DNA of 64,000 nucleotides from Clostridiales bacterium. Lineage in GTDB: Bacteria; Bacillota; Clostridia; Christensenellales; UBA3700. A model generated the notes under the pieces. The model saw only the letters and a list, made by a program, of their open reading frames with translations, was not told the origin of the DNA and searched no databases. Of the stretch, positions 46,928 through 63,841 are shown one piece after another. Both the position numbers and the translations under genes were made by a program. The first letter of the stretch is position 1. Every line of letters starts with the position of its first letter. The stretch covers positions 5,390-69,389 of the forward strand of contig SVHF01000004.1 in NCBI GenBank assembly GCA_015055975.1, in the 5' to 3' direction.

Positions 46928-46940
46928 GAGGTAAAGAAAA

Positions 46941-47288: not shown

Positions 47289-47325
47289 TACACGCAGCAT
47301 ATGGCTGCAAAGGAGATATAAAACT

Positions 47326-47745: not shown

Positions 47746-47787
47746 TGATAAACACAAACAATCGCTACGGATACAAACTATATTCAA

Positions 47788-47817
47788 AGGGGTGCTCACA
47801 AGGTGCCCCTCTTTTTA
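47788..47817 (+). terminator. intrinsic terminator inside the anti-defence cassette
   Basis: AGGGGTGC-tcacaag-GTGCCCCT (including two G:U pairs) followed by CTTTTT. Confidence 0.6.
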
Positions 47818-47987
47818 TGGTTCATTCATTTTCTCATGCTTTGAAGATAAAACAAATATATACAAACGGACACCATATACCTGTATGGATAGTCCCTATT
47901 AAGAAATCTGAATATATGAAAGGTATATGGAGAGATCCCCTCCTTTCTGATTTCTAAAGCTACTAAATAAATTGGAGGTGATAACAA

Positions 47988-48560: not shown

Positions 48561-49834
48561 TAGAAAAGATTAAACCAATACCTAAATATATAGAGAAACA
48601 AATAATAACGAAATATGAGCAAAGCAATTATGCTGAACACTATTATTCATATCTAACAAAGAATGATGGCGAACTAGTAGAAATGCTAGTTGCTGTAAAG
48701 CCATATAAAGGAAACATCTATTTAAAGCAAGTCGCTTGTCATGGAATAGACTCAGAAGAAGCTTTTATAAAAGATATGAACTTTACATATCTTGCTGGCT
48801 ATCGAGTTGGCTGGTATGCCGAAGGATTAACTAAACAGCAAAAATATTGGGAAGATGGTAGATGGTGGAAATCTTATGATGAATACTATAACCCATACTC
48901 AGTTTTACTAAATCCTGAATATGCTAATAAACAAAAAGAATTCAAATATGCTCTTGTAGAAAAAGTGTCTGGAGTATACATATTTACATATCTTAGACTG
49001 TTTAGAGAATTCCCTGAGATGGAATCTATCGAAAAGATGGGACTTGCTTGTCTTATATATTCTAAACAGATCTTAAAGAAATTTAGAAAAGATACTACAT
49101 TTAGGAAATGGCTTTATAAGAATAAGGCAAACATTAACCAAAAGAGATATAGGATTGGAGATATTATATCAGCATACAACAAGCATATAGAGATAGATTC
49201 ATATTGCGAATGGGCTGACTTTAAACGCAAATACAAAGGCGTTTCTCTTAATGGATTTAAAGATTTAAAATCTTTCTTCAATTACATCAAGAAACAAGAT
49301 GCAAACGTAGAATCATATAAAGATTATATGTTAGCTTGCCAAGAACTTGAGATAGATACTTCTCTACCTAAAAACTATATGCCACATAATTTCAAGTATT
49401 GGCACGATGTTAGAATAGACCAACTAAATGCTTTAAAAGCCGAAAGAGATAGAAAAGCAAGAGAAGAACTATATAACAAGTTTGCTATTGTATCTAACAA
49501 ATATTCTTCCCTACAAAAGCTAAAAGGAAATATGTATGTAGCCATCATACCAACTAGCCCTGCTGACTTAATTCAAGAAGGCGATATTCTACACCATTGT
49601 GTAGGTAGAATGAACTATGATGCTAAATTTTCAAGAGAAGAAACCCTTATATTCTTTATTCGAGATATACAAAACATTAAACAACCTTTGGTTACTATTG
49701 AATATTCTTTACGTGAACATAAAGTCCTTCAATGCTATGGAGATCACGATACAAAACCAAATGAACAAATAGAAAACTTTGTTTTCAAACAATGGCTACC
49801 TTATGCCAATAGACAATTAAAGAAAATCGCTTAG
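48554..49834 (+). CDS. PcfJ-like protein
   Basis: 426 aa. The C-terminal block LIQEGDILHHCVGRMNY...TIEYSL...VLQCYGDHDTKP resembles the PcfJ domain as I recall it. Confidence 0.65.
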   Translation: MLIEKIKPIPKYIEKQIITKYEQSNYAEHYYSYLTKNDGELVEMLVAVKPYKGNIYLKQVACHGIDSEEAFIKDMNFTYLAGYRVGWYAEGLTKQQKYWEDGRWWKSYDEYYNPYSVLLNPEYANKQKEFKYALVEKVSGVYIFTYLRLFREFPEMESIEKMGLACLIYSKQILKKFRKDTTFRKWLYKNKANINQKRYRIGDIISAYNKHIEIDSYCEWADFKRKYKGVSLNGFKDLKSFFNYIKKQDANVESYKDYMLACQELEIDTSLPKNYMPHNFKYWHDVRIDQLNALKAERDRKAREELYNKFAIVSNKYSSLQKLKGNMYVAIIPTSPADLIQEGDILHHCVGRMNYDAKFSREETLIFFIRDIQNIKQPLVTIEYSLREHKVLQCYGDHDTKPNEQIENFVFKQWLPYANRQLKKIA

Positions 49835-49845
49835 GAGAAATACTT

Positions 49846-50160
49846 ATGGAAAACTATTTTAGAATTACTGCACAATTAGATAATGGAACAAGCTTTATAC
49901 TAGACTCTCATGGTATGTTTGAAAAACTATGGGAATTTTCTGTATATGTTAAATCCAAAGGAGCATCAATTATTGAAGCTACATCATCTGAACAATTTAT
50001 AGATATTAATACTCAAAAAGAGATACAAAGATATTCAGATAAATTATTCCTTATTGCCTGCGACCCTGACCCAGCAAAATGGATTGACTATGAATATGAG
50101 GGGAAGAAATATAAGGCAATACAAGTAAGAGATAAGATTTATATACCGAGAAAGGAGTAA
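49846..50160 (+). CDS. hypothetical 104-aa protein
   Basis: AGGAGA RBS. Last gene of the plus-strand cassette. Confidence 0.6.
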   Translation: MENYFRITAQLDNGTSFILDSHGMFEKLWEFSVYVKSKGASIIEATSSEQFIDINTQKEIQRYSDKLFLIACDPDPAKWIDYEYEGKKYKAIQVRDKIYIPRKE

Positions 50161-50167
50161 TTGAAAA

Positions 50168-50190
50168 AGCCAGGTCTTTCGATCTGGCTT
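50168..50190. terminator. bidirectional hairpin between the convergent cassette and the R-M genes
   Basis: AGCCAGGTC-tttc-GATCTGGCT. Confidence 0.55.
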
Positions 50191-50674
50191 AAATTCTATC
50201 TCCATATGGCAACGCTTTTATATAATTCTCCATATAACTCCAATCCGGACTTCCATCTTTTGTTGCTGGCATTTTTAAAATCGTTTCATTTATTAAATCC
50301 ATTTTAAACGATCTACCATAACTATATTTATATCTTTCTTTTTCAATTAATGATTTAACAAATAGTGCAGTATATTTATTAATCCAATCAGCTCTACAAA
50401 CTACTATATGATCACCCGTTACAAAATCTTCTTCTTGATAAAAAATAGTAGAAGTTGTGTCACCAATGATTAAAGCACCACCCTTTTCTTTACTTGTTAC
50501 ACTTGTTTTATCAATATAGCAATCACAACCATTTTTGTTTTCCGTTCTAGTAATAAATCGTATTCTTTCTTCACTTGGAGAATCAAAATACTCTATATCA
50601 TTCTTTACATATGCCGTTGCTTTATATATTTTGGACAACAAATCGCCAAACCTAAACTCTTTCCAATCATTCAC
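50189..50674 (-). CDS. R-M specificity subunit, second target-recognition half (no ATG or RBS of its own; reading frame continues upstream to the G9 tract)
   Basis: 161 aa from a GTG codon. It begins NDWKEFRFGDLL and ends MPATKDGSPDWSYMENYIKAL, a TRD-plus-conserved-region layout like an HsdS half. Confidence 0.6.
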   Translation of the reverse strand: MNDWKEFRFGDLLSKIYKATAYVKNDIEYFDSPSEERIRFITRTENKNGCDCYIDKTSVTSKEKGGALIIGDTTSTIFYQEEDFVTGDHIVVCRADWINKYTALFVKSLIEKERYKYSYGRSFKMDLINETILKMPATKDGSPDWSYMENYIKALPYGDRI

Positions 50675-51185
50675 ACCATGAATAACTGATTGATACCCCC
50701 CCCCTATTCTTAGTCGTAATAGGATTAGAGTTTAGAGTTTTTATGTAATTATCCATAAAAGCCCAATCAGGCTCTCCATCTTTTGTCGCAGGCAATTTAA
50801 TTACTATCTTTTTAGAATTACCAACTCTACATTGTCTACCATATGCCCACTTATAATTTTCATTAAAATTAATAACTTGAGCAACAAAAAGCCCGATCCT
50901 ACTATTCATTTTAAACTTAGGAATAAATATGTTTACGTCTGAAGTAGCACAAAAAGGTTCTGGTGCATAAAAGGCTGTACAACCGACCTTTCCAGTAACA
51001 ATGCAATTGCCCTCAAAATCTGGAGCTAAGTCTATATATGAACCAATTCCATTGTTTTCGTTTGAAGCAGAATAATATGGAGTTTTTCCTTCTTCATATT
51101 CCTCTGGATAATGATATTTCCCTGGTATTATATTGAAATAATCATATAATAAAAATTCTTTCCAGTTTTCTGTATTAAGACTCAT
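50667..51185 (-). CDS. R-M specificity subunit, first target-recognition half (terminates 25 nt after the G9 tract)
   Basis: Start at the ATG at 51185, after GAGGGG. Carries NTENWKEFLLYDYF...LPATKDGEPDWAFMDNYIKTL. The tail NRGGVSISYSWCE looks out of frame. Confidence 0.65.
   Translation of the reverse strand: MSLNTENWKEFLLYDYFNIIPGKYHYPEEYEEGKTPYYSASNENNGIGSYIDLAPDFEGNCIVTGKVGCTAFYAPEPFCATSDVNIFIPKFKMNSRIGLFVAQVINFNENYKWAYGRQCRVGNSKKIVIKLPATKDGEPDWAFMDNYIKTLNSNPITTKNRGGVSISYSWCE
50696..50704. repeat. C9 (coding-strand G9) homopolymer at the junction of the two specificity half-genes
   Basis: It is the only 9-nt G/C homopolymer I saw in this AT-rich window. Confidence 0.95.
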
Positions 51186-53004
51186 ATACATGCCCCTCTT
51201 TAACCAAAAATGCTAAATAATCATTTATAGTTTTTTGAAAATCTGCATCAGACAATTTTGAATAATCGGTCTTCATATAAGCTTCGCACAACCATTCATC
51301 TTTACCTGTTACTTTTTTTACTGCAGATAAACCATCAACGCTTCTTCTATTTCTATATAACTCAATCCACTGCTTCTCTATAGCATCCCATTTACTATTA
51401 CCTTTTGAGTCAACTTGCTCAACACGTCCAATATTCTTTTTCTTCTTAAATCCATCATCCTTATAATATCCAAAGAATGTATCTGGATTTGAAACATCTT
51501 TATGCTTTTTCCCAATTTTAAACACCATACAACAAGCTGATGCTGATGCTCCTGGGTAGAATACTTCGCCAGGTAAAGTGAAAACTGCATCTAACGTATT
51601 TTCTTCTAATATTTTCCCTTTAATAGCGGAAATATCGCTACTTGACCCAATTGCACACGCAACAGGCAACAAACATGCTAAAGTGGCTTGGACATTAGCC
51701 TTATTCAAAGTATCACAAATATATTTTACGAAATAAAAACCCTTCGTTGGATCTTCTTTTTTGTCCTTAGGCCAAGTATCTGTAAAAGCTTCTGGCAAAT
51801 GCTTTCTTTGCGCATTGTATGGAGGATTCATAAGGATTACATTTGGCTTTGTATCTTTAATTAAATCTTCATAATCAAAACAACTTCCAACTCTAATATT
51901 AGAATTTCCATCAGAATGAATTAACATATTAGTTGTTGCTAACCCATACACATTCTCATCATATTCAATTCCATAGATTTGTTTTTTCTTTACTTCGGCT
52001 TGTTCTTCTGCCGTTGAACAATCATCTAAAGCTTGCGTCATTGCCCTAACAAGGAACGAACCACTTCCACAGCATGGATCTAAAATAACGGAATGCTTAT
52101 TTACTCCACATATTTTTGACATAAAATCTGTAATATGATCAGGAGTAAACGCTTGGTTTTTATCTTGTTTTCCAACGTACTTATTAAATGTAATAAAGAA
52201 TAGATTCAATAAATCTTGGCCCGCGGTACTCTTATCGTTAATAAATGGCAAAATGTTTTCTTCAATAAACTCTAAGATTTTTCTAAAATCTTCTATCTTT
52301 AAAGCACGAACATCTTGTGAATCAATAACATTTTTGTTTAACAAGACCAATTTCTCAGCTTTTCTCAAATCGCCATTTAACAAATTTTCCAATATTTCAC
52401 TAAATCTGGCTCTTATTTGTTTAGCAGTCAATGATGGAATGTTGTAATCCAATCCATTCTTTAATCCTAATAAACATGTTCCAACAAACTGACTTCTCAA
52501 ATCTTCCGAAATACCATAACGATGCAATAGTTCGTTTAGTTTATATGTATTGCTCATTACTTTTTCTTTGTTGTTAATTTTTGTTGTATAAAAATCTATA
52601 TATTCGTCAATTGTCTTTAACTTTGTTTCTGTAGGCATAAAATCCATATCTGATACAACGCCACGCCAAACCAAAATATCATCATTTGTTGTATTTGCTA
52701 AAATAGCCACAATCTTATTTGTTGGAAATAACTGTTTTTCATATTGTACATATGCAGCCAACTGTTCTTTTGCGCTATCCAAATCATTATTAAAATCAAT
52801 TTTTGTTTCAATTAATACAGCTACACCATCTTTAACAAATCGTAAATCAAGCTTTTCATATTTTCTATTATCTTTTTTGCTTGTTATTGGTGTAAATGTA
52901 ATAGCAAGTTTTTTGAACTCTTTAGGATAACTAAACTCATCGTTTTCAATGTTAGCAACTAAATTCCCTGCTCCTACTGTTGTAATCATCTGATTTCTCT
53001 TCAT
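51175..53004 (-). CDS. gamma-class N6-adenine DNA methyltransferase with an extra N-terminal PD-(D/E)xK-like domain (BcgI-A-like R/M fusion candidate)
   Basis: Start trimmed to the ATG at 53004, after AGGAG. Motif I is ILDPCCGSGSFLV and motif IV is ILMNPPYN. The N-terminal ~130 aa contain KLDLRF...VAVLIETK (D, 12 residues, then E-x-K). Confidence 0.8.
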   Translation of the reverse strand: MKRNQMITTVGAGNLVANIENDEFSYPKEFKKLAITFTPITSKKDNRKYEKLDLRFVKDGVAVLIETKIDFNNDLDSAKEQLAAYVQYEKQLFPTNKIVAILANTTNDDILVWRGVVSDMDFMPTETKLKTIDEYIDFYTTKINNKEKVMSNTYKLNELLHRYGISEDLRSQFVGTCLLGLKNGLDYNIPSLTAKQIRARFSEILENLLNGDLRKAEKLVLLNKNVIDSQDVRALKIEDFRKILEFIEENILPFINDKSTAGQDLLNLFFITFNKYVGKQDKNQAFTPDHITDFMSKICGVNKHSVILDPCCGSGSFLVRAMTQALDDCSTAEEQAEVKKKQIYGIEYDENVYGLATTNMLIHSDGNSNIRVGSCFDYEDLIKDTKPNVILMNPPYNAQRKHLPEAFTDTWPKDKKEDPTKGFYFVKYICDTLNKANVQATLACLLPVACAIGSSSDISAIKGKILEENTLDAVFTLPGEVFYPGASASACCMVFKIGKKHKDVSNPDTFFGYYKDDGFKKKKNIGRVEQVDSKGNSKWDAIEKQWIELYRNRRSVDGLSAVKKVTGKDEWLCEAYMKTDYSKLSDADFQKTINDYLAFLVKEGHVYES

Positions 53005-53093
53005 AATAAAACTCCTAAACGCAATTATTATAACACGCACGCACGAAGTATAACAATACCGAAAATGTCACCTTATTAACCTACTAAACTGCT

Positions 53094-53415
53094 AAGTGGT
53101 AATGAGACGTGTGCTTGTCTTGATACGAGCGTCTCGCTTCGCTCGCCGTCGACAAGCACACGCCCACCCGATGAACTTGATAAACTGCTGAAACAAAAAA
53201 GTTGCTGGGGCGGTAGCGAGTTCCGCTGAACCGCTCCACAACCATCTCGCTATCACACATTTCCAGTCAATCTTAAATTTTGTTTTTCATCGCATTGTTT
53301 AAATCAATTGTTCAAAACGGTTGTTGGGCTTTGTTTTTCTTGTCGATCTCGGCGTTCATTCGTTATTAGTTTTTAGTTCAAGTGGTGATGGGCGTGTCGC
53401 TTGTCTTGATACGAG
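53094..53415. other. candidate rolling-circle replication origin: GC-rich hairpins and repeats upstream of rep
   Basis: - A 12-bp inverted repeat, 53108-53119 with 53151-53162, enclosing a nested CGAGCG/CGCTCG.
- TAGCGAG/CTCGCTA arms.
- The 16-nt core CTTGTCTTGATACGAG at 53114-53129 and again at 53400-53415.
- ATTGTT(T/C)AAA at 53294 and 53307. Confidence 0.45.
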
Positions 53416-53439
53416 AATAAATATTTAAATATTTATATA

Positions 53440-54357
53440 TTATGAACTCTTAGTTTTCAATAATGGTTTAACTTCCTTAGACATATTACCTAAGAATTCC
53501 CCTTCATCCCAACATTCAAAATCATCAGGAAGAACCATACTCTTTTCATACTTGCCTATTCTTCCTAAATCATCATCACTGTTAATGTCAGAAACTAAGA
53601 ACATTGGTAGCCCCTTGGAATGAATAACCTTTTCATTTGTCTTAGATATGTATTTCATGATGTAGCTTATTGCCATCTCATATGCTTGCTTATGCTGTAT
53701 TATTTCTCTAAAATCGTTTCTTCCAAAATGCTCTTCAAAAAATGTATTATATGTTGTTTCTTGCATCTTATGTTGTTTTGTACTGTAATCTTTTCTAACT
53801 TTTAATTCTCCAACCATCTTTCCTTCAGGAATATATAACATCCCATGGAAATGTAATCTTTCATTTGGAGAGATCTCCCATACGCCCATATATTTCCAAC
53901 CATATTTTTTCTTATACTTACACAACTTATTTATTAGCCCTCTTTTAAAAGATGCTTCTGTATGCTTTTCATCATCATATGTAAATGTTACGAAATAGTT
54001 AAACTCATTCATAAATGCCTTTCGCATAAAAGTTCTTTTCTTTCTTGCTATTTGATTCTGTCTACGTTCAGCTTCCTTTTCTACTAATTCTCTTGCCCTT
54101 TGCTCAGACATACATTGTTCCATTAATTTCTCTACTGCTTTTTCCTTTCGTTTCTCTCCTTTCAATTCACTACTATCTTCATAAGCTTCTTTTGCTGCTT
54201 CCTTTTCTTTATCCACAATCTCTTCTTTTTCTTTCTCGCCAATAATATCTAAAAGATTGTCTGCCATCTTCTTTGGCTTTCTAGGTTTGGCTGGATGATA
54301 TGTAATAGCAACATAGTGAGATCCATCATGGTATACTTTCGCTGCTGGATACATCAT
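53440..54357 (-). CDS. HUH-superfamily rolling-circle replication initiator (two-Tyr type)
   Basis: Start at the ATG at 54357, after GGAGGTG. Motif I is FVTFTYD, motif II (HUH) is RLHFHGMLYI and motif III is YIMKYISK (Y-x-x-K-Y). Confidence 0.8.
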   Translation of the reverse strand: MMYPAAKVYHDGSHYVAITYHPAKPRKPKKMADNLLDIIGEKEKEEIVDKEKEAAKEAYEDSSELKGEKRKEKAVEKLMEQCMSEQRARELVEKEAERRQNQIARKKRTFMRKAFMNEFNYFVTFTYDDEKHTEASFKRGLINKLCKYKKKYGWKYMGVWEISPNERLHFHGMLYIPEGKMVGELKVRKDYSTKQHKMQETTYNTFFEEHFGRNDFREIIQHKQAYEMAISYIMKYISKTNEKVIHSKGLPMFLVSDINSDDDLGRIGKYEKSMVLPDDFECWDEGEFLGNMSKEVKPLLKTKSS

Positions 54358-54424
54358 AATTATCACCTCCTTTGCATCCCTGCATGAAAATATATAGACG
54401 GAGCTTTTACACCCCGCCTATATC

Positions 54425-56545
54425 TCAATCTTCTTTATATAATGAATTTATAAAATAGCTGTTTTGCATTTTCAGTTCATCTACACTAGCTTTAGTCTCC
54501 ATATATTCTTCATAATCATCAAGACCTACTTTTGTTTGTCTTGCTCTATCATTGAAATAATCACTAAAACAATCTGTAGAGAATCTATCTGCATAAATCT
54601 TTTTGTTAATGACATAATACCTTTCTTCAATAGCATCGCCTTCCATTGTGCCTTTTTCTCTAGATATATACGCTACCGAATATCCATACTTATTAACGGC
54701 TAAACAATGTTGCTTATATAAAAATGCTGCTATCGATTTGAACAAATACATAAATAAGGTATTATCTCCTCTTAAATATCTTATGCTTGTGTATAAGCCC
54801 AAAAACTTATCACAAATGTATCTATACACTTTACCTTCTAACAAATAACCAACTGACGCAAACTTTGTTTGAGAAACTTCATTAATCGTTAGAATATCGC
54901 ATAGATCTCTTGCATCTGCTCCCCAAGATTCAGGTCTTTGCTCATCCGTAAATACCTTTATAAATGGGAAGTTTTCAACTGTGGCTGAGTGTCTACACAT
55001 TTTTAACCAAGAATTAAATAGGTCATTCTTTTGGTTAGTTACAAACTCACCTTTCTTAACTTCCTTTAATTCCAATGTGTTTCCACGTTCTTTTCCTACC
55101 TCAGATATATTAACTACACCAAATTCAAAGCTACCTGTCTTTTCATTGTTCTCTAACACTTGCTTACCTAGTCTTAACGCATCAAAATCTAGAATGTGAG
55201 CATGTCTTGAAAACCTATTTCTATTATTCGAGAAGAAATTGAAATTCCATAATGGGAAATTGCCTTCTTCATAGATATAGTTATCCTCTCTAATAGAATA
55301 GTTTGAAACCATCAATGAACTTTGAATAATATAGATTAGATATAGTTGAGCATAACTCTCCAATATATCCCAGATATTAACTACCTTTAATGCATCATAA
55401 TATTCATAAGGATATCTCTTTATGTCATAACCATATAACTTGTCTGCTGATGGATTCTTTTCATATCTCATACGTTTTTTCTCAATCCATCCTTTCGCTG
55501 TAGCCAAGTTATATATTTGCCTATACCCCATCATCCTTTGAATATCTAACTCAAATAGAATCCATGGGAAATTTGGAAATCTTAAATCACAATCTTGTAA
55601 TAGCTCTAATGCTTTTTGCCTAAACATTACCTCTTGAGATAATGCCATATCTGTTATCAATGTTGTTTTCTTCTTTCCCATTGATCCACAAACCATAGAT
55701 ACTATTGGAAGTTCATTAATAAATCCTTTATCACAACATTCCATTCTATTTAGTTCTCTTAAAGCAGCTTCGTGTCTTGCTTTAATAAACAACCATATAA
55801 ATATGATTGGAGCAATAATAGGCACTTGCTTGATAGGAGTTTGTATATCCAATATAAACTTCACCAATTGTATATATAAGTCTGCTACATTAAACGTCAC
55901 TACGAAATAGAAATAGAATGATAAGAATTCAAATACTATCGTAAAGATATTTAGATTAATGCCCCAAACCAATATCAACAAAACAATAACTGGTGTACAA
56001 TTACGCAAATAATCAATATACCCCTTTATAGCTTCTTTTATTGGCTGAAAGATAAAAATATCAATACGTTTCCATATTTTTAAAGGTATTGTATCTCTAT
56101 TATAGTTGTTATTTGGCTTCATATAGAGCTGTTTGATTAGATATCCAAATAAGAATAATAATGGTATTAAAATCGCTCCTGCCTTGCCTATATAGCCCAT
56201 TATATTTCCCGTCTCTCCTAGCCAATTAGTGAAATTCTTTTTAGATATAAACAATTCCCAATAATCTTTTGCTCTATCCGATACTCCATCTTGTGTCTTA
56301 GCAAAAAAGTTATCCCAAGTTATAAACTCAGAATAACCATTAACACCTAATTCCTGTGTATAGTCCTTTTGAACTATCCTCATGAAATAGTATTTGATAG
56401 ACTCTCCTAGATGAAATATAGATTCTTCTGCACGACAATATGATCTAAAAAATATATCTAATCCAATAACTATTGAAGCTGCAATTATAAGAACTGACAC
56501 TATCGCATATATTATGTCTTTTAATTTATTATTTTCATTTATCAT
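54425..56545 (-). CDS. 706-aa protein: ~260-aa polytopic membrane domain plus a C-terminal P-loop NTPase (distantly Zot/pI-like)
   Basis: About 6 TM helices at the N-terminus. P-loop-like VCGSMGKKKTT, candidate Walker B GVVNISE, and then CRH...IKVFTDEQRP, which is reminiscent of the Zot-family RH...TQ block. Confidence 0.7.
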   Translation of the reverse strand: MINENNKLKDIIYAIVSVLIIAASIVIGLDIFFRSYCRAEESIFHLGESIKYYFMRIVQKDYTQELGVNGYSEFITWDNFFAKTQDGVSDRAKDYWELFISKKNFTNWLGETGNIMGYIGKAGAILIPLLFLFGYLIKQLYMKPNNNYNRDTIPLKIWKRIDIFIFQPIKEAIKGYIDYLRNCTPVIVLLILVWGINLNIFTIVFEFLSFYFYFVVTFNVADLYIQLVKFILDIQTPIKQVPIIAPIIFIWLFIKARHEAALRELNRMECCDKGFINELPIVSMVCGSMGKKKTTLITDMALSQEVMFRQKALELLQDCDLRFPNFPWILFELDIQRMMGYRQIYNLATAKGWIEKKRMRYEKNPSADKLYGYDIKRYPYEYYDALKVVNIWDILESYAQLYLIYIIQSSLMVSNYSIREDNYIYEEGNFPLWNFNFFSNNRNRFSRHAHILDFDALRLGKQVLENNEKTGSFEFGVVNISEVGKERGNTLELKEVKKGEFVTNQKNDLFNSWLKMCRHSATVENFPFIKVFTDEQRPESWGADARDLCDILTINEVSQTKFASVGYLLEGKVYRYICDKFLGLYTSIRYLRGDNTLFMYLFKSIAAFLYKQHCLAVNKYGYSVAYISREKGTMEGDAIEERYYVINKKIYADRFSTDCFSDYFNDRARQTKVGLDDYEEYMETKASVDELKMQNSYFINSLYKED

Positions 56546-56667
56546 ATGCTACCCTCCATTAAATCATAAAGGGCTGCTAACTCATTTCCTGTATAAACAA
56601 GATATGAAATTAACAACCCTAGAATGATTAGTACGAAGAGTATTATGAATACTTTTAATTTCTTCAT
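56542..56667 (-). CDS. unannotated 41-aa single-TM protein MKKLKVFIILFVLIILGLLISYLVYTGNELAALYDLMEGSI
   Basis: Hand translation. It has a strong AAGGAGGAG RBS, and its stop overlaps the ATG of the 706-aa gene (ATGA). It falls below the ORF-track size cut-off. Confidence 0.6.
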   Translation of the reverse strand: MKKLKVFIILFVLIILGLLISYLVYTGNELAALYDLMEGSI

Positions 56668-56678
56668 ACTCCTCCTTT

Positions 56679-57101
56679 TTAACCTAATTTAATTAGGCAT
56701 GTTGCACATATGCTCTCATCTTCAACGCTCTTTGCTGTAAGTGTTAAATATACCGTTTGCTTTACCCAAACTACTGTATGATACTTAATGCACCATATAG
56801 TACATTTGTTTCCCTCAACTAACATTCCGACGTTGTTCGTTGGTGGATAGCCTTTAATACGGTTATATTCTCCTTCAGATGTGTTAACTGGATCCCAAGC
56901 TAGTTCCCATGTTACTTCTTGATTTGCATCTACTGGTTCTACATAGGCATATATTTCTGCACTATCCCCAACTTCAGCAAATACTACATCTGCGTTTGCA
57001 CCTTCACTAACACTTAAGCTCAAGATTGAGATAAGAACAATGGCTACCCCTAGCATTATGCATGCTATACTTGCTCTATTTACTTGTGTAAATCTCTCCA
57101 T
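56679..57101 (-). CDS. membrane-anchored 140-aa protein with an Ig-like (Big_2-type) ectodomain
   Basis: GGAGG RBS and an N-terminal signal/anchor. The pattern AEIYAYVEPVDANQEVTWELAWDP is present. Confidence 0.65.
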   Translation of the reverse strand: MERFTQVNRASIACIMLGVAIVLISILSLSVSEGANADVVFAEVGDSAEIYAYVEPVDANQEVTWELAWDPVNTSEGEYNRIKGYPPTNNVGMLVEGNKCTIWCIKYHTVVWVKQTVYLTLTAKSVEDESICATCLIKLG

Positions 57102-59061
57102 TTTCCTTGCCTCCTCGCTTTCGCTTTCTTATTGATTTAAAGATAGCTATAACAATCTTGAATGGTAAGGTTATTACCCATAACACTGCTCTTATGATGT
57201 AAGGAAGAATTGGCAATAGAATTAATAACAATAAAATTCCTAAGATAATTCCCAAGATGAGTTTCCATAAAGATATCTCATCTGCAGGGGCTGTAAAACC
57301 GCTTACTATATCTATTGGACTTGATACAACTGGTATAACGAAATATTCACCTTCTTTATTGAAGGTTAACTCGATAATGTCAAAATCAAAAAAGCATGTC
57401 TCTTGTGCTACATATGTATCTTTGTTGTTAGATTTAACTTCTATTCCATTGATTGTTCCATCAACGTTTTGTGTGAAATAATCTGTTACAGCAAATCTAA
57501 ATAGCACTAAATGTTCGCCCTTTAACTGAGCTTGAGCATATGCTGCTTGAATATCTGATACATCATCTTCATCTACTAATAGATTCTTTGAAATATTCGC
57601 CTTTGTACCTATAACATCATCAGCAGATACTTCATATATTGGAGAAACATTAGAATAGTCTCCTGATGTATCTGGCCAACTAAAACCGAAATCTAATAGC
57701 TTATCGTACCAAGCATGGTTTGAGTCATACGAATTCAAATCGAATGTGTCATTAAGGTCAATCTCTTTTAGATTGTATCCTCTAGTTCTACCACCATCTA
57801 CTGTTGCCTCAAACAGATCAGCGCTGATATCCCTACCATTACAATCGATTGTTTCGCCACTACCTTGGAAATTGTATATATAGTCCAATACTTCGTTGGA
57901 TGTTACATCCCCTACATTTTGACAATCCGTAAAGAAACTAAATATGTTCTCTACCGAATTTGCCCTTTCACTATAAAAGCAATATGGGATTTGGTCTGAA
58001 GCTGATTTCACTTCTATGATTCTCAAATAGCCGAATCCAGATTGTGTTTCACCTTTGATGTTATAAGCCCAATCGTATGAAGTCTTTGAATTACTTTGGA
58101 ACATAGTCGATGTATTTTGCTCAATTCTATTAATGTATAGATTGCCATTTACTGCATCACTATGCTCTCCTACATTGATTTTTGTATAAGGCATAAATGC
58201 GTTATATAAACTTTGGTTCGATGTAATCAAAGCCTTCTTGGTCTTATACTCCCACCACTCAGCTTTTATCTTCTGCAAATACCCATATTGATTGTAGATA
58301 TAATTTGGAATTGAGAAATATACTGTATTTACTTGGTTATAGTGTCCTGCACCTTGAGATGACATATTGGTTCTAAATGCAGTATGTTGAACATTCAATA
58401 GAAGTGTTTCTATTTCTTCAATCCTGCAAGTCAAACTCGATTCGTCATTCTCGTTAGGCCCATAACCTTTAGAATAACCAGTGAAGTTATACTTCCCTCC
58501 AACTGTATATTCCGTAGCATTCTTATTTCCAACTCTCAATAACTCTATACCAGAGATTTTGTATGTACGCTCATTAGAATTTAAGCCATCCAAAATTTGT
58601 TTGGCATCCTTTAATCTATATTTGTAGAACAATCCCCTATATGCAGCCTCATTTGATTTAGAACAAAACTCTAAAGCATATTTGGTGTAATTAACTTCAT
58701 CGCCAACTGCTATCTGTACTTTATTTTGCCCACTTGTTTCAGATAAGACTAAACCTTGAGGATTATATATATAGAAATAAAGCCCATAATTAGCTTGCTT
58801 ATTCTTCTTATATGAATAACAATACTCAACCACTTGGATTATCTTTAAATTGCCTTGCTCATAAAATGGATAGTTCTTTATATCAAAGCTTTCTCCATTT
58901 ATCTTTGCACTCCTTAAATCATCTAAGACATTTGTATTTTTAAAAGAATCGCTCTCAGCGTAACAAGTATCTATAAATGTGCTCTGCACGAGCAATAAAC
59001 TTATGCAGAGCATTAGGATTATACATATTATTTTGACTGAGAGTTCATAATTTACCCTCAT
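57076..59061 (-). CDS. 661-aa secreted protein with a C-terminal membrane anchor (adsorption/spike-protein-like topology)
   Basis: The ATG at 59061 overlaps the upstream stop (TGATG). Signal peptide ending in DTCYA/ES. C-terminal TM region LWKLILGIILGILLLLILLPILPYII followed by a basic tail. Confidence 0.7.
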   Translation of the reverse strand: MRVNYELSVKIICIILMLCISLLLVQSTFIDTCYAESDSFKNTNVLDDLRSAKINGESFDIKNYPFYEQGNLKIIQVVEYCYSYKKNKQANYGLYFYIYNPQGLVLSETSGQNKVQIAVGDEVNYTKYALEFCSKSNEAAYRGLFYKYRLKDAKQILDGLNSNERTYKISGIELLRVGNKNATEYTVGGKYNFTGYSKGYGPNENDESSLTCRIEEIETLLLNVQHTAFRTNMSSQGAGHYNQVNTVYFSIPNYIYNQYGYLQKIKAEWWEYKTKKALITSNQSLYNAFMPYTKINVGEHSDAVNGNLYINRIEQNTSTMFQSNSKTSYDWAYNIKGETQSGFGYLRIIEVKSASDQIPYCFYSERANSVENIFSFFTDCQNVGDVTSNEVLDYIYNFQGSGETIDCNGRDISADLFEATVDGGRTRGYNLKEIDLNDTFDLNSYDSNHAWYDKLLDFGFSWPDTSGDYSNVSPIYEVSADDVIGTKANISKNLLVDEDDVSDIQAAYAQAQLKGEHLVLFRFAVTDYFTQNVDGTINGIEVKSNNKDTYVAQETCFFDFDIIELTFNKEGEYFVIPVVSSPIDIVSGFTAPADEISLWKLILGIILGILLLLILLPILPYIIRAVLWVITLPFKIVIAIFKSIRKRKRGGKENGEIYTSK

Positions 59062-59660
59062 CAAAATTCAATTACCTCCTCACTTAAAGTTACTTTGTCG
59101 ATTATGCTATCTGCTAGTCTAAACCCTATACATATTGAAGATTCGCCATTATATGATGTAACAATGACAGTGAATTGATCTTTTTCAAAATCTATTTCTT
59201 TCTTGTCTATTGTTACCTTTGAATCCTCATACATTTTGTCTAAAACATCTTGCATTGATGTATAGTAGATTGTAAAGGATGTTTCATCCCTTGCTATCTC
59301 AAATGCTTTTGTGCAATCTCCAATAGCTGAGAATGAATATGGCTCATCATCTACTAAAAATGCAAAATCGTTGTCTTGGTTTGGAACTATTTGAATATCA
59401 TAACCGGATACCTCTTTGCTTAGTGCCCCAAATGTGTATTTAACATCAATAGTCAATGGACTATCCCAGTCTAATACATATCCACCAGTGTTAGATAAGA
59501 TATTTACATCTCCCATAGAAACATAGAATGTCTTAAAATCACCAGTGAAACCATTTGTGAAGAACGCAAAGAAGCCACCAATTGCGATTACAACAAGAAC
59601 TACAATAATGTAAATGATTATGTCTTTAACCTTGCTGCCCTTACTTCTTGCGTTTCTCAT
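59061..59660 (-). CDS. 199-aa N-terminally anchored membrane protein
   Basis: GGAGGTGG RBS and TM helix IIIYIIVVLVVIAIGGFFAFF. Confidence 0.65.
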   Translation of the reverse strand: MRNARSKGSKVKDIIIYIIVVLVVIAIGGFFAFFTNGFTGDFKTFYVSMGDVNILSNTGGYVLDWDSPLTIDVKYTFGALSKEVSGYDIQIVPNQDNDFAFLVDDEPYSFSAIGDCTKAFEIARDETSFTIYYTSMQDVLDKMYEDSKVTIDKKEIDFEKDQFTVIVTSYNGESSICIGFRLADSIIDKVTLSEEVIEF

Positions 59661-59672
59661 AAGCCACCTCCA

Positions 59673-60728
59673 TTAAAATTCAATTGAAGTTGCGCTTAAA
59701 CTGAGACTAGATACTGTAGCTTGGGTTGTGATATTGATAGATTGGGAAACTCCAGAATTTACTTCTGTAACAGTTACTGCAATATATGGCTTTTTACCAT
59801 CTATATATCCTGTAAAAGTCCAATCTGAATATCCAGATCTATCTGCACCATGTGACGAATAAGCACTGAAAGAATCCCCTGCTGTTAATTGCAACTTTCC
59901 ATCAACGATCTTTGCAGTAAGAATATTTAAATGTCCACCTGTTTTAGCCAAGAATGCATAATAATTAGTATGAGATTCTGGAATATCGCCAGCAGAAGAT
60001 GCTAATTGAACGGTACCATCAGATTCAGTATCAGCCCCTGTGTAATTATTATGACTAACAGAATGATATGTAATACCACCATGGCATTCCATACTGATAT
60101 TATATGTGCCATAACCTGAACCTACTGCGTGCATATAGTTATCTAGATTTAAATCCAAACTTGTTGTTGTTCCACAATATAACTCAATACCAGATACATT
60201 CCAACCTTGAAGAGTCTTTGTTGTATATCCATTTGTATTAATGCTTAATGAATTTGGTGTACCTACATATTTAACTACGCAAGTTGCCATATATCCACCA
60301 ACATCTGTTCTACATTGAACTAATACGTTATATCCTTCAAAAGGTTTTAAACATTGAATTGTTGCTACCTTACTATCGTTTGAACTTGGTGTAACTGTAA
60401 TGTAGTGAGAAACCACACCATCTTCTGATGGGGCATCCGTTGATGCATCCCATACTACTGACCATCTAACGCTCTTATTTGGAGCATCAGAAGGTAGAAC
60501 TGTTGCTGTAATAGTCTTTGTATAAGAATCTTGATCTCCAGCTGCTGCTAAGGACAATGTAATATGCCCTTCGTCATTGAAAATTTCGTAATCTAGTAAT
60601 CCTGGTGCTGAGAATGACATTTGTGGATTATTAATCTTAATTGCTAATCCAATTGCAATACCAATACCAGTAAATGCTAAGACTACCACGATAGCCAAAG
60701 CTATCCATTTAATTTTTGTCTTATCCAT
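59673..60728 (-). CDS. 351-aa N-terminally anchored protein with an Ig-like (Big_2-type) domain
   Basis: AGGAGG RBS and TM helix WIALAIVVVLAFTGIGIAIGLAI. The ITATVLPSDAPNKSVRWSVVWD pattern is present. Confidence 0.65.
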   Translation of the reverse strand: MDKTKIKWIALAIVVVLAFTGIGIAIGLAIKINNPQMSFSAPGLLDYEIFNDEGHITLSLAAAGDQDSYTKTITATVLPSDAPNKSVRWSVVWDASTDAPSEDGVVSHYITVTPSSNDSKVATIQCLKPFEGYNVLVQCRTDVGGYMATCVVKYVGTPNSLSINTNGYTTKTLQGWNVSGIELYCGTTTSLDLNLDNYMHAVGSGYGTYNISMECHGGITYHSVSHNNYTGADTESDGTVQLASSAGDIPESHTNYYAFLAKTGGHLNILTAKIVDGKLQLTAGDSFSAYSSHGADRSGYSDWTFTGYIDGKKPYIAVTVTEVNSGVSQSINITTQATVSSLSLSATSIEF

Positions 60729-60764
60729 CTTGTTTTATACCTCCTATTAAAATGAATAAATGTT

Positions 60765-60790
60765 AAAAGGCGACCCTTTTCGAGCCGCCT
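60765..60790 (-). terminator. candidate intrinsic terminator after the 113-aa gene
   Basis: The minus strand reads AGGCGGCT-cgaaaag-GGTCGCCT followed by TTTT. Confidence 0.4.
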
Positions 60791-60811
60791 AGTTTTCGAT
60801 ATTATCTATGC

Positions 60812-61153
60812 TTATCTACCAAGCATCTTTAATAACATCTTGTCTGATTGCTTGTCTGGCTTAACTTTACATGTGTAAACTTCGCCATTTTCATCGGTTG
60901 ATTCTACTTCATATGTATTACCATTGATGATGTTGCCCGTTTCGTCCTTCATTTCGAATGGAGTAATCTTTAGATTAGCTTTGTCTTCGCCATTAAATAC
61001 GATTTCTAATACTTGATATCCACCGTTATCTTGTGGCTTAACATATGCCTTAACTTCCCTTCCTCTAATTACGCCTTTTACGAAATATGAGAAAAATGAC
61101 TTACCATCTTTAGTTACATATGGTTCTCTCTCAACAACTACTACGTTTGCCAT
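60812..61153 (-). CDS. 113-aa soluble protein (possible ssDNA-binding, OB-like, judged from position and size only)
   Basis: AAGGAGG RBS. A beta-rich sequence with no TM helix. The functional guess is inference. Confidence 0.6.
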   Translation of the reverse strand: MANVVVVEREPYVTKDGKSFFSYFVKGVIRGREVKAYVKPQDNGGYQVLEIVFNGEDKANLKITPFEMKDETGNIINGNTYEVESTDENGEVYTCKVKPDKQSDKMLLKMLGR

Positions 61154-61199
61154 TGATTAATACCTCCTTTTAATTATTTTTGTGCCTAGTCTCGACTAA

Positions 61200-61466
61200 C
61201 TATTTTTGTGCTGACTTTGCTTTCTTGGCACGAGAGATTTCTTTAGCTTCAGCTTTTGTTTTACCTTCATTCATTGCTTTCTTATACTTGTATAAGCCAG
61301 CGTGATCTGATTGACATTGAAGATAACCACTTCTAATACCTGCTTCGAAATCTGTTAACTCCTTGCCCTCTTTAGGACCATGAGTGTGAACCTTATTTTT
61401 ACGCTCTTCTGCGTATCTACCGGCTCTCTTGTTTGGTGTTAACCAACGTCTTAATAAATTTGCCAT
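61200..61466 (-). CDS. 88-aa lysine/arginine-rich protein
   Basis: TGGAGGA RBS. Strongly basic N- and C-termini. Confidence 0.6.
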   Translation of the reverse strand: MANLLRRWLTPNKRAGRYAEERKNKVHTHGPKEGKELTDFEAGIRSGYLQCQSDHAGLYKYKKAMNEGKTKAEAKEISRAKKAKSAQK

Positions 61467-61732
61467 TTATATAAATCCTCCAATTTTTATTTGTAATTAT
61501 TTACGATGGGTTTTACGACCCACGCCTTTCTAAATCAATATGACCGATCTACCGTTATCCCAGTAAAATTTAGAATCTGCTATAAAAATGTAATTATTGT
61601 TTTATTTGTATATACCCTATATAATCTTCACGATTTACGTGGAACATTTGGTTCCTCCTATGTACACTCAGAAGAACGTTAAACATTTGGTTTACCACCT
61701 CCTTTGTGGGTATATTTCTATTTGGATTCTAG

Positions 61733-62014
61733 CTATGCTAGTTTCCTGACTGCGATGTTTGATGCAATACGTTTGCCTTCAAGTTTATCTCCACGCATCA
61801 TGAAGATTCGCTCGTACTGCACGTCTCTAAGTTGTGTTCTGCGATAGAATGTATCTGAGCTCATTAATTGTGCTTCACCATTAAATTCCCTTACCGCCAA
61901 TTTCTGAACGATAATGAAATCTTTGGTTCTATAGATGTTGTCAATGTTCCCGACGATAAAATCGCATGGACCAACTTGTTTTTCTATCGACTCAATATCG
62001 AAGATCATGCCCAT
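61733..62014 (-). CDS. 93-aa hypothetical protein (first gene downstream of the iteron array)
   Basis: Start trimmed to the ATG at 62014, which lies 9 nt after GGAGG. Confidence 0.55.
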   Translation of the reverse strand: MGMIFDIESIEKQVGPCDFIVGNIDNIYRTKDFIIVQKLAVREFNGEAQLMSSDTFYRRTQLRDVQYERIFMMRGDKLEGKRIASNIAVRKLA

Positions 62015-62119
62015 TGATTTGTACCTCCTTTGTTTATTCAATTCGCCACTTGTTTCCTTGTAGCTTATTGTCTGATGTAAATGTTCACTTGCCTTTCAGC
62101 ACTTACAATATATGGCGAA

Positions 62120-62229
62120 TAAAAGGGAGATTGCGTGGGAGTAAATGGGGAGTAAAAGTGAGTTTTATGGGTACTAAAAGTGAGTTAAAAGTGAGATAAA
62201 TGGGTATAAAGGTGAGATAAAAGTGGGCA
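62120..62229. repeat. about ten tandem 11-bp iterons, consensus TAAA(A/T)G(T/G)G(A/G)G
   Basis: Reading in 11-mers from 62120 gives: taaaagggaga, ttgcgtgggag, taaatggggag, taaaagtgagt, tttatgggtac, taaaagtgagt, taaaagtgaga, taaatgggtat, aaaggtgagat, aaaagtgggca. Confidence 0.85.
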
Positions 62230-62230
62230 T

Positions 62231-62258
62231 AAAAAAAGACCCAGATTTCTCTGAGTCT
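62231..62258 (-). terminator. intrinsic terminator after the lipoprotein gene
   Basis: The minus strand reads AGACTCAGA-gaaa-TCTGGGTCT (one mismatch) followed by TTTTTTT. Confidence 0.6.
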
Positions 62259-62281
62259 TTGAATCGAAATTCTAAAATGAA

Positions 62282-63817
62282 CTATAAATTAATCCAACAT
62301 GCAGGTCGAATTCCTCCTAGCGTATTTGTCTTTTTCCCAGTTGAACTCAATGCACTTGTGCCATAAATATTACCATCGGCCCCGATATATTTATTACTAT
62401 TATCGCCAGTGGTATCTCTGTCAGGGGAACGCAATCTCCAATCACTATATTCTGAACTATACTTAATTAATCCTTGGCACTTTGCATATGACGTAGAAAC
62501 CGTTTGAGTTGATTTTAATTCAAAATATGTATTCACTTCTGAATATGACAACAAAAACAACTTATCATAACATGAATTACATTCATAATAACTTGGAGAC
62601 CCACCATACGAAGCTGAACTATTATCAATCATTGTTGCTTGAAGTATACTTTCTTCGGCATCTACAAAAACTTCTGCACAAAACGATTCTGCCAACCAAA
62701 TACGAATATCTGACAATTCATAATTGTTTGCATATCCACTTCCACCATTATGAGTAAAAACTCCAGATGTTTTTGCTGAATAAAATACTTGAGCATCTAA
62801 TACTATTGATGATATTAACAAAGCTTTACCATCTGATACATTTAATACTTCCCATTTAACTGGAGCCCACTTAAACCAATAAAAAGTGTTTTTGCTAAAG
62901 CCATTATTTGTTCTATATTGATTGTCTTTTGAATAATATATACCTCTATATTTTTCTCCATTTAAATAGTAATCTTGGTACCACATATTTGAGTCATTTG
63001 TACACCTATTCCATACAGAAGAATCGAAGCTAATTGTGTTTTGTCCTGATTTTGATTGTAATGCGTTAATTATTGATGTATTTTCAACTAACTCTTGAGG
63101 ATATCTTCCATAATAAATAATATTAGAATCTAATGAATCGTATTCGTATAATTTATATTTTTCCATTGTAATTGTCACATCAACAGCTGGCATTGAAAAA
63201 CAATAAGTATTGCCGTATTCTGTAACCCCGTCACTTCTTATCCATTTAATTGAATACCCAGCTGGAACATTATTTGCTTCTAAAATAACATTTTCGTTAT
63301 AATCATAACTATCATCAATGCTATTAAGTAAGCTAATACCATCTGCGCTTGCTTGATTATTTACTATTAATTTATGTTGTTCAACCAACAAAATAACACT
63401 AATTGACAAATCATACTTTGGCATTTTAAAACTATATGTACTACCAGTAAATGTTTCCCCATCACTTCTTGTCCAAATAATATTAGATCCAACTGGAACC
63501 CCTACTGAACGAAGAAACACTTCAGAATTATACTCTTTTGAAAAAGAATCTTGGCTTAATATATTAATTGCACCACTTTGTATCGCGATACTATTATTAG
63601 CTGTATTATTATTAATGGTTAAAGTATAATACTCAACATCATCATTGTCATTATTTGAATTGTCATTGGTTTGACTGTTTGCGTCGTTATTTGAATTGTC
63701 ATTGGTTTGAATGTTTGCGTCATTATTATAATTAGATTTGCCTGATGAACATGCAACCGCAAAAAGCATACTAACCGCAATTAATAAAACAATAGAAATA
63801 GTTATAACCTTTTTCAT
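62282..63817 (-). CDS. lipoprotein with an Asn/Asp-rich linker, two InlB-B-repeat-like domains and a DUF6273-like C-terminal domain
   Basis: Start trimmed to the ATG at 63817, after GGAGAG. Lipobox LFAVAC. Domains of the type YTLTINN...WTRSDGETFTGSTYSFKMP. The C-terminus GGIRPACWINL matches my recollection of DUF6273. Confidence 0.7.
   Translation of the reverse strand: MKKVITISIVLLIAVSMLFAVACSSGKSNYNNDANIQTNDNSNNDANSQTNDNSNNDNDDVEYYTLTINNNTANNSIAIQSGAINILSQDSFSKEYNSEVFLRSVGVPVGSNIIWTRSDGETFTGSTYSFKMPKYDLSISVILLVEQHKLIVNNQASADGISLLNSIDDSYDYNENVILEANNVPAGYSIKWIRSDGVTEYGNTYCFSMPAVDVTITMEKYKLYEYDSLDSNIIYYGRYPQELVENTSIINALQSKSGQNTISFDSSVWNRCTNDSNMWYQDYYLNGEKYRGIYYSKDNQYRTNNGFSKNTFYWFKWAPVKWEVLNVSDGKALLISSIVLDAQVFYSAKTSGVFTHNGGSGYANNYELSDIRIWLAESFCAEVFVDAEESILQATMIDNSSASYGGSPSYYECNSCYDKLFLLSYSEVNTYFELKSTQTVSTSYAKCQGLIKYSSEYSDWRLRSPDRDTTGDNSNKYIGADGNIYGTSALSSTGKKTNTLGGIRPACWINL
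63651..63722. repeat. 2 x 36-bp tandem repeat within the lipoprotein linker (encodes NDANxQTNDNSN)
   Basis: Copies at 63651-63686 and 63687-63722 differ at 2 positions. Confidence 0.9.
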
Positions 63818-63841
63818 AAATAAACTCTCCATATTTTTGTG

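Follow-up and report, generated by a model that had tools for sequence, protein, structure and literature searches.

A mobile element of gut Clostridia with a phage-type rolling-circle Rep and a membrane-embedded NTPase: the candidate genome of a non-lytic virus lineage

The DNA analysed here is a window of 64,000 nucleotides from an uncultured gut Clostridiales bacterium (contig SVHF01000004.1 of assembly GCA_015055975.1), and its subject is a discrete mobile element of ~9.17 kb, inserted in the chromosome at positions ~53094-62259 of the window. Ten open reading frames (ORFs) at 53440-62014, all on the minus strand, appear in the ORF listing where an earlier reading of the window, hereafter the sequence-only reading, had placed them. 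Each is preceded by a GGAGG-type ribosome-binding site, and the spacing between genes ranges from -26 to +83 nt, except for the 266 nt that separate the first two. In the order of transcription we call them g1 to g9 and rep: three small soluble proteins (g1-g3), four membrane-anchored or secreted proteins (g4-g7), a very short protein with one hydrophobic segment (g8), a membrane P-loop NTPase (g9) and a rolling-circle initiator (rep). The span first proposed, 53440-62014, was right for the genes and too short for the element, which also takes in an origin hairpin and an iteron array: its extent follows from a right end located at ~53094 and a left end at a terminator-like hairpin. Coordinates below are those of the window, and features lie on the minus strand unless stated otherwise.

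The arrangement is widely repeated. Using the NTPase as probe, we fetched 80 loci of the 165 matching stretches in species-representative genomes (one genome per species); a metagenome scan with the same probe gave at least 417 confirmed matching stretches, of which 80 loci were kept, many of them human-gut contigs, and exact look-ups added a few more. In a tblastn comparison of all ten proteins with these ~170 fetched loci, the order g1-g2-g3-g4-g5-g6-(g7)-g8-g9-rep is found in essentially every locus that is long enough, even though proteins of relatives are only ~30-50% identical. Since the same order recurs in ~170 independent loci, the arrangement is not due to chance. The carriers are almost all metagenome-assembled genomes (MAGs) of gut Clostridia (Christensenellaceae, Acutalibacteraceae, Gallimonas, 'Eubacteriales'). 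Genes flanking the element vary among the ~170 loci and some MAGs hold two or three copies, which identifies a mobile module and rules out the conserved, syntenic core genome that the sequence-only reading had named as the contrary outcome. The element is also a mosaic: compared with the related locus L003, g2-g4 and g7 are 92-99% identical, g5 and g6 72-73%, and g9 and rep 63-64%. Relatives carry 1-4 kb of additional genes upstream of g1 or g2.

The last gene, rep (53440-54366; 305-308 aa), encodes the two-tyrosine HUH initiator that had been recognized in the sequence-only reading. Its product matches the whole profile of Pfam family PF23343 (REP_ORF2-G2P), which is of the inovirus G2P / plectrovirus ORF2 type, with 44.6 bits (curated cut-off 27.8) and E 1.9e-11, and precomputed annotation assigns the Reps of relatives to the same family. 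FNYFxTFTYD, RLHFHG and aYxxKYxeK are kept in 71 relatives, with the HUH and YxxKY motifs conserved; these motifs are those of a two-tyrosine superfamily-I initiator. The Pfam scan reported no match of Rep to Y2_Tnp or Y1_Tnp at E up to 1. Rep is the sole element protein identified by the family scans (Pfam, PHROGs, NCBIfam, PADLOC), and it is identical to GenBank MBE5762988.1, a protein from a Clostridiales MAG that carries the annotation 'hypothetical'.

A two-level hairpin follows rep at a distance of ~200 nt, at 53106-53165 in the window, and together with the right terminus forms an origin-like feature at 53094-53165. It consists of a 14-bp outer stem (GGCGTGTGCTTGTC / GACAAGCACACGYC; in the two-level fold, GGCGTGTGCTTGTC ... 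GACAAGCACACGCC) whose base is lengthened by covarying pairs, a GC-rich inner hairpin of variable sequence, and the conserved CTCGTATCAA, followed by a 12-nt tail after which similarity to relatives stops. Between the inner hairpin and the 3' arm, relatives share a nearly invariant unpaired CT(T/C)GTATCAA. RNAalifold recovers this fold, with double-sided changes in 11 of 20 pairs; 96.3% of cells pair in the named structure, and its covariation score is 0.199, as against 0.056 in shuffles. None of 500 shuffles reaches any of the five measures used, all slid registers collapse, and the 187 nt around the origin have a DNA fold z of -4.4. The structured origin that had been noted next to rep is thus real. 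A search for a tRNA or small-RNA attachment site in the GC-rich stretch 53084-53260 found none; the region is the origin hairpin itself.

When related copies that differ in their flanks are compared in pairs, the right boundary consistently falls 200-335 nt beyond rep. The end lies 11-13 nt past the foot of the stem and usually reads YCAA(A); in the window it falls at ~53094, with the sequence TCATTACCACTT. Beyond it the flanks are unrelated, even for otherwise near-identical insertions, and a repeat search found no flanking direct repeats. Between rep and the origin hairpin, a second conserved hairpin with GCGGTTCAGCG (53207-53243) lies within the predicted fold; in relatives (for example L010, 13200-13245) the motif AAGCGGTTYAGCG is conserved between varying complementary arms. 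This hairpin is a candidate Rep-binding site or complementary-strand origin. A 36-nt partial duplicate of the origin (53380-53415), comprising the conserved loop CTCGTATCAA, the 3' stem arm and the terminal 12 nt, stands 25 nt after the rep stop, with the complete origin 286 nt downstream of it. This duplicate is lineage-specific, is present also in L002 and L094, and may be what a Rep-mediated joining left behind. A terminator scan further indicates a terminator-like hairpin between the NTPase gene and rep (54392-54423).

The left end coincides with another hairpin found by the terminator scan, AAAGACTCAGAGAAATCTGGGTCTTT followed by a T-run (62235-62260): similarity between the window and L003 starts exactly there, the genes upstream being different, and the end sequence at 62259 is AAGACTCAGAG. 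Several relatives likewise begin with hairpins, and the arms of L030 and L120 differ yet remain complementary. Just inside this end is the iteron array that had been reported near g1, and which proves genuine: ~5-9 units with an 11-nt period (TAAAAGTGAGA) at 62112-62234, inverted relative to the genes and conserved in L003. Tandem Repeats Finder (TRF) gives periods of 11/22/33 over 62145-62234, and a weaker first copy extends the array from 62112; the promoter region of g1 follows just inside. Iteron-like repeats are inverted and at the left end in the window lineage, and in direct orientation at the right end in the lineage of L083 (L083 13405-13450); on a circle, both would surround the junction. 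A gene for a secreted DUF6273 protein, whose N-terminal region is repeated and rich in Asn (62282-63832), abuts the left end; we place it outside the element because L003 carries a different upstream gene.

The 706-aa product of g9 (54425-56545) is, as the sequence-only reading held, a transmembrane-plus-P-loop NTPase. Kyte-Doolittle hydropathy shows hydrophobic segments up to ~residue 254; after them comes the Walker A motif GSMGKKKT, for which the family consensus is the canonical GxMGxGKTT. All of 135 members keep K293 (Walker A), E482 (Walker B), N489 and R537. The family is large and uniform in length (~700-750 aa). It comprises at least 2,714 clusters when grouped at 90% identity, those listed being all without a Pfam annotation, and 872 clusters at 50% identity, 469 of these below E 1e-30. 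An AlphaFold model built from an alignment of 135 diverse sequences reached pLDDT 95 and pTM 0.88, while an alignment of 32 sequences had left the ATPase domain at pLDDT 59. In this model, residues 1-278 form a helical membrane bundle of ~nine helices, which precedes a P-loop domain with long helical insertions.

What does not hold is the label 'Zot/pI-like' that had been attached to this protein, which fails every sequence test, weak structural hints remaining. The single sequence has no match in Pfam, PHROGs, NCBIfam or PDB sequences; 67 diverse members gave no match to Zot, FtsK_SpoIIIE or a coupling protein (Pfam at E up to 10, PHROGs at E up to 1), generic P-loop noise apart; and hhalign of the g9 family against an alignment of 38 Zot sequences, homologues of phage B5 Orf8, returned a probability of 6% with Walker A alone aligned. 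We therefore reject a Zot identity at the sequence level. The model was compared with known structures by Foldseek. Against BFVD, A0A894JLK1, a viral protein without a name, is the one significant match (E 1.6e-4, probability 1.0, target-normalised TM 0.57); two Inoviridae Zot proteins rank in the top ten with probabilities of 0.75 and 0.38, both weak (E 0.13-0.4, target-normalised TM 0.26-0.39). Against PDB all matches are weak, the top one being the STIV2 B204 genome-packaging NTPase (probability 0.9, E 0.17), followed by HerA and AAA+ proteins. Named structural matches are thus mostly viral, with the addition of cellular HerA, and all of them weak. Given these matches and the negative Zot tests, g9 is a P-loop motor and not a demonstrable Zot/pI protein; the closest relatives that can be detected for it are mostly viral and lie around the FtsK-HerA group. 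pI is itself a member of the FtsK-HerA superfamily (PMC6813254).

Three small genes open the transcription order, and their products have no hydrophobic segment in the hydropathy scan which, together with charge counts, underlies all membrane and charge features given here. g1 (61733-62014) encodes a 93-aa soluble protein without a family-library match, conserved in relatives as an ~82-aa version. g2 (61200-61466; 88 aa), described earlier as basic and indeed of net charge +12, is the element's most conserved protein (aligned relatives are 50-74% identical to that of the window) and, from its composition, probably binds nucleic acid. g3 (60812-61153; 113 aa) has the position and the size range of inovirus single-stranded DNA (ssDNA)-binding proteins. 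By that analogy it might be of ssDNA-binding type; a PDB profile search with g3 was empty.

The following genes encode the membrane and secreted proteins. g4 (59673-60728; 351 aa) and g5 (59061-59660; 199 aa) each have one N-terminal hydrophobic segment (residues 9-27 and 14-32, respectively), the membrane anchor expected from the sequence-only reading, and an acidic ectodomain; g5 occurs in 57 of the first 82 loci. An Ig-like domain had been proposed in both g4 and g7. That of g4 receives weak support, 4 of 37 relatives having a Big_2 match (E 5.8e-4 at best), so that the ectodomain probably holds a Big_2-type domain; that of g7 was not confirmed. g6 (57076-59061; 661 aa) shows the predicted N-terminal signal-like segment and C-terminal anchor, in the form of a double hydrophobic segment with a basic tail (RKRKRGGK), on either side of a large ectodomain: judged from hydropathy, this is the topology of a spike or of a pIII-type adsorption protein. 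No Pfam family recurs among 37 relatives of g6, and no PDB match was obtained. g7 (56679-57101; 140 aa), anchored or secreted through its one N-terminal hydrophobic segment, occurs in 3 of the first 82 loci and is a variable accessory gene. g8 (56542-56667; 41 aa), whose stop overlaps the NTPase start, has the one hydrophobic segment announced for it, between a basic N-terminus and an acidic C-terminus. Relatives of 32-50 aa share MKTxKRIxAV...GYLxYTG and an acidic tail, and in nearly all of ~45 loci inspected a gene of this type ends at or overlaps the NTPase start. The features of g8 make it a candidate coat protein or NTPase partner; its basic cytoplasmic end and acidic outer end give a polarity along the sequence opposite to that of pVIII, and it has no homology to known coat proteins in Pfam or PHROGs.

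Searches for distant homologues were otherwise negative. Profiles of g2, g3, g4 and g6 had nothing significant in PDB; g3, g5 and g6 match nothing; and family profiles of g1-g6, g9 and Rep gave noise only against the proteins of M13, phage B5, Plasmavirus L2 and SpV1-R8A2B. Scans of the ten proteins against Pfam, PHROGs and NCBIfam found no integrase, transposase, relaxase, VirB4, lysin, holin, capsid, terminase, portal or tail protein; this bears out the earlier statements that the module lacks capsid, terminase and tail genes and also, with the 67 NTPase relatives taken into account, a relaxase and VirB4. No gene called in the elements of relatives belongs to an integrase family, and none of the ten proteins has a defence-family match in PADLOC. 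Integration of the XerCD/dif type is unlikely, as insertion sites vary among lineages, no flanking direct repeats were found and there is no GC-skew switch at the element. We found no description of this NTPase or element family in the literature.

Among loci L003-L173, contig ends are enriched at the rep-3'/origin region, where 30 of 87 truncated contigs end within 600 nt, and a second group of 22 contigs stops within 300 nt upstream of the NTPase start. Both pile-ups are consistent with co-occurring mosaic relatives that break assemblies at conserved segments; the one at rep-3'/origin could arise because the conserved origin behaves as a repeat in assembly, or from a heterogeneous junction.

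In the window, the element is flanked by the DUF6273 gene on one side and, on the other, by restriction-modification genes (a methylase and specificity subunits) and by ArdA, PcfJ and PcfK genes. None of these is conserved beside relatives and we rejected them as parts of the element. The latter belong to an island (45704-53040) with ArdA antirestriction, DUF4313, PcfK and PcfJ genes and a type I-like restriction-modification set without R subunit, formed by a methylase (51175-53040) and two half-size S subunits (50189-51191); an identical arrangement is present in L174. The island is probably part of another mobile element beside tRNA-Glu (43173-43247). Among relatives, near-identical insertions share the same left flank (umuD/umuC/YolD-like) and have different right flanks within ~60 nt of the element end (L083-L086, L104, L106, L107, L109, L113, L124, L133 and L157). 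Most of these variant flanks are type I restriction-modification or other defence-type genes, as are the restriction-modification genes of the window, and the region beyond the right end may be a hotspot for defence-gene turnover. Further away, a TnpB / IS605 OrfB-type gene with a Cas12f-like TNB domain (40683-41903) adjoins two tRNA-Met genes (41985-42145), and a ZMP/ZTP riboswitch (22850-22929; 62.8 bits) lies directly upstream of a 745-aa ORF (22953-25190).

We consider it somewhat better than an even proposition that what is integrated here is a viral genome, from a large and so far undescribed lineage of small, non-tailed viruses that replicate by rolling circle, assemble at the membrane and leave the cell without lysis; the particles are hypothetical. 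When the ends are joined into an inferred circle, the genes follow one another as rep, origin, small soluble proteins, membrane proteins (one of them large, with signal peptide and C-terminal anchor), small transmembrane protein and NTPase, which by comparison of annotations is also the order of M13. The gene order had been called atypical because rep comes last; this is simply where the inferred circle is opened by integration, and on the circular map the order is that of inoviruses. The viral reading is the most economical because it accounts together for this circular order, a phage-type Rep, a hairpin origin, the lack of lysis genes and an NTPase whose named structural relatives are mostly viral, cellular HerA being among them. 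Of the inovirus-like or pleomorphic element first proposed, the discrete mobile module, the rolling-circle Rep and the set of membrane NTPase and secreted proteins all stand, whereas sequence does not discriminate between the two types of particle: a membrane envelope would be in keeping with the large, anchored proteins that have ectodomains, and g8 could be a coat protein.

A plausible cycle can be outlined on this basis. The element would become transiently circular, bringing rep and the origin hairpin next to the iterons and g1. Rep, whose family and motifs are those of an initiator, would nick the extruded origin hairpin, either in the conserved loop or at the terminal YCAA(A), and drive rolling-circle replication to yield single-stranded circles. 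The very basic g2, with g3, may coat or escort this DNA. The products of g4, g5, g6 and g8, and sometimes g7, whose topology favours insertion in the cytoplasmic membrane, would be the particle components. g9, with its P-loop fold and invariant catalytic residues, would power DNA export through the membrane while the DNA acquires the membrane proteins, and the resulting particle, a filament or a membrane vesicle, would be released without lysis. Integration would take place without a dedicated integrase, probably through Rep acting at the sharply defined right terminus: the lack of an integrase and an end situated 11-13 nt from the hairpin foot suggest Rep-mediated strand transfer, and this geometry calls to mind the right ends of IS200/IS605 elements.

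Several observations weigh against a virus. Some concern the proteins: g9 is not Zot in any sequence test, its ~nine-helix N-terminal membrane domain, as modelled, falls outside the accepted definition of pI, with 1-2 transmembrane domains (TMD) (PMC6813254), and no particle protein has a detectable homologue in Pfam, PHROGs or PDB, or among M13, B5, L2 and SpV1 proteins. Others concern the replicative form. Fetched loci display no terminal overlaps and no permuted gene order, and in none do early genes follow rep; nor was a tandem or circular junction seen, none of 102 right flanks resembling any left arm; assemblies thus hold no evidence for an episome. Neither the NTPase nor Rep occurs on any PLSDB plasmid. 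In virus catalogues, only 2 loci were found in IMG/VR, both embedded in long contigs, and a single GenBank phage record, an unverified 57-kb fecal scaffold, has the element embedded in it; the contigs of true B5-type inoviruses, by contrast, are mostly of 5-8 kb. Finally, every host is a MAG, and the element is known from its sequence alone.

Among competing explanations, the one that survives best, though we judge it unlikely, is a canonical but highly divergent inovirus (Tubulavirales) in which g9 would be a pI/Zot orthologue with an extra membrane domain and g8 the major coat protein. The gene order on the circular map, the G2P/ORF2-type Rep and a conserved small single-TMD protein all accord with it, as do canonical inoviruses being known in Clostridia (PMC10061712; PMC8530359). 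Two Zot proteins stand in the top ten BFVD structural matches of g9, at the weak scores given above, and RH...hhhhTDEQ after the Walker B motif resembles what we take to be the Zot signature, 'RH.G.D-hhhh-Q'. Yet Zot went undetected in 67 NTPase members and by hhalign, ~nine membrane helices stand where 1-2 TMD are required, the charge polarity of g8 is reversed relative to known major coat proteins, and proteins of 351 and 199 aa occupy the places of pVII, pIX and pVIII. Published criteria for inoviruses comprise a morphogenesis ATPase closest to Zot (PF05707), of the FtsK-HerA type and with 1-2 TMD, and structural proteins of 30-90 aa with a single TMD (Roux et al. 2019, PMC6813254). The element departs from the closeness to Zot and, with ~nine helices in the model, apparently also from the TMD number, while its ATPase has the weak structural matches to Zot, STIV2 B204 and HerA. 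Of short single-TMD proteins it has one conserved candidate, g8, its other membrane proteins being of 140-661 aa. An inovirus-associated rolling-circle initiator beside an origin is present, on the evidence of PF23343, the conserved motifs and the covarying hairpin.

Less probable again is a non-viral element for cell-to-cell DNA transfer, with Rep as relaxase, g9 as an FtsK/TraB-like pump and g4-g6 as adhesins or a mating bridge. In g9 a polytopic membrane domain at the N-terminus precedes a C-terminal motor, the layout of FtsK, TraB and coupling proteins; there are weak structural matches to HerA and EssC, and all copies seen are chromosomal. Rolling-circle Reps do act as relaxases in the Tn916/ICESt3 group, and genes of a kind typical for conjugative elements (ArdA, PcfJ and PcfK) adjoin the element in the window. 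These genes are however not conserved beside relatives, Rep is of the phage G2P/ORF2 family, and neither the ten proteins nor the 67 NTPase relatives match FtsK_SpoIIIE, VirD4/TraG, VirB4, a relaxase or a cell-wall hydrolase; we know of no conjugation system in Firmicutes that dispenses with VirB4.

A rolling-circle or single-strand transposon (IS91/ISCR/Helitron or IS200/IS605 like) carrying membrane proteins as cargo, without export, would explain a sharp right end that lies 11-13 nt past a conserved hairpin foot and reads YCAA(A) although no integrase is present, the covarying left-end hairpins, a Rep beside the origin at one extremity as in IS91-type elements, the duplicated [loop to terminus] unit of the window and identical insertions with different right flanks, but it is improbable, Rep being of PF23343 with no Y2_Tnp/Y1_Tnp match reported, and nine further genes, including an intact 706-aa NTPase, that keep their order at ~30-50% identity being hard to see as passive cargo. 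It overlaps in part with the integrated virus that we favour, as Rep-mediated integration is compatible with both.

All element proteins except Rep are unannotated despite hundreds of relatives in gut bacteria. If the element is a virus, a common type of chronic, non-lytic virus of Christensenellaceae, Acutalibacteraceae and related gut Clostridia has been overlooked; non-tailed phages would be counted too low in gut virome surveys that take Zot, capsid or terminase as markers, and a new kind of membrane-embedded morphogenesis ATPase would be added to those known. If Rep is what integrates it, this would be an integrase-free route to lysogeny for a rolling-circle replicon. A more ambitious version, which we advance tentatively, is that these elements form a new family- or order-level group of viruses, common in gut Clostridia of humans and animals and missed by current virus-detection tools, with particle proteins and an export NTPase for which no described virus has a detectable sequence homologue (the NTPase having weak structural matches), and with Rep-driven integration and excision at a hairpin terminus in place of an integrase or XerCD.

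Known systems offer partial parallels. IS200/IS605 and IS91/ISCR elements share with ours an HUH enzyme as sole DNA-processing protein, and the ends of our element, with subterminal hairpins, a right end at a short fixed distance past a hairpin with a CAA-type motif, and no obvious target duplication or terminal direct repeats, may be of the same kind; they differ in that the Rep described here is of the G2P/ORF2 family, not Y1_Tnp/Y2_Tnp, and is accompanied by nine more conserved genes, among them a membrane NTPase. Pleomorphic viruses, namely the archaeal Pleolipoviridae and Plasmavirus L2 of Acholeplasma, resemble the element in their spike-type protein with signal peptide and C-terminal anchor, their small membrane proteins and their conserved P-loop NTPase; they have no capsid genes and are released without lysis, a likeness that for the element is read from its genes alone. 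L2 ORF3 also has, on reading its sequence, an N-terminal hydrophobic region before the P-loop, as has g9. Alphapleolipoviruses possess a rolling-circle Rep, and the pleolipovirus gene order is broadly like that of the circular map of the element. The likeness is one of topology alone: no homologous spike/membrane/NTPase core was found in comparisons with L2 proteins and PHROGs. L2 has no protein similarity to the element (profiles of g1-g6, g9 and Rep) and has an integrase and DnaA-box origins, which the element lacks, and the hosts of the element are walled Gram-positive bacteria.

Gram-positive inoviruses (Tubulavirales; Paulinoviridae such as Propionibacterium phage B5; Clostridium and Enterocloster inoviruses) have in common with it a small co-directional genome without lysis or secretin genes, integration in the chromosome, a Rep family (PF23343) shared by inoviruses and plectroviruses, and the order rep, soluble proteins, membrane proteins, a large protein with signal peptide and C-terminal anchor, small transmembrane protein and membrane-associated P-loop NTPase. 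Firmicutes inoviruses however have a stand-alone Zot domain (PMC8530359), whereas the NTPase of the element is non-Zot by sequence and has a polytopic N-terminus. The element has no recognisable coat proteins and the genes of its structural module are much larger. Clostridia inoviruses, with a detectable stand-alone Zot and genomes of 6.5-8.5 kb (PMC8530359, PMC10061712), differ from it on both counts, and they are flanked by direct repeats (PMC10061712), none of which was found here. Unlike inoviruses, the element is undetected by Zot-based pipelines and nearly absent from IMG/VR.

Conceptually, the closest recent report is that of Dehalococcoides IME1 (bioRxiv 10.64898/2026.09.15.751708). 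IME1 elements are larger (21-28 kb), are restricted to Chloroflexota, have a detectably pI-like ATPase and are seen as circular episomes and in metaviromes, none of which is true of the element described here. Like it, they are integrated, lack tailed-phage hallmarks and combine small transmembrane or signal-peptide proteins with an ATPase, and it is on similar grounds that they have been proposed to be budding or filamentous viruses.

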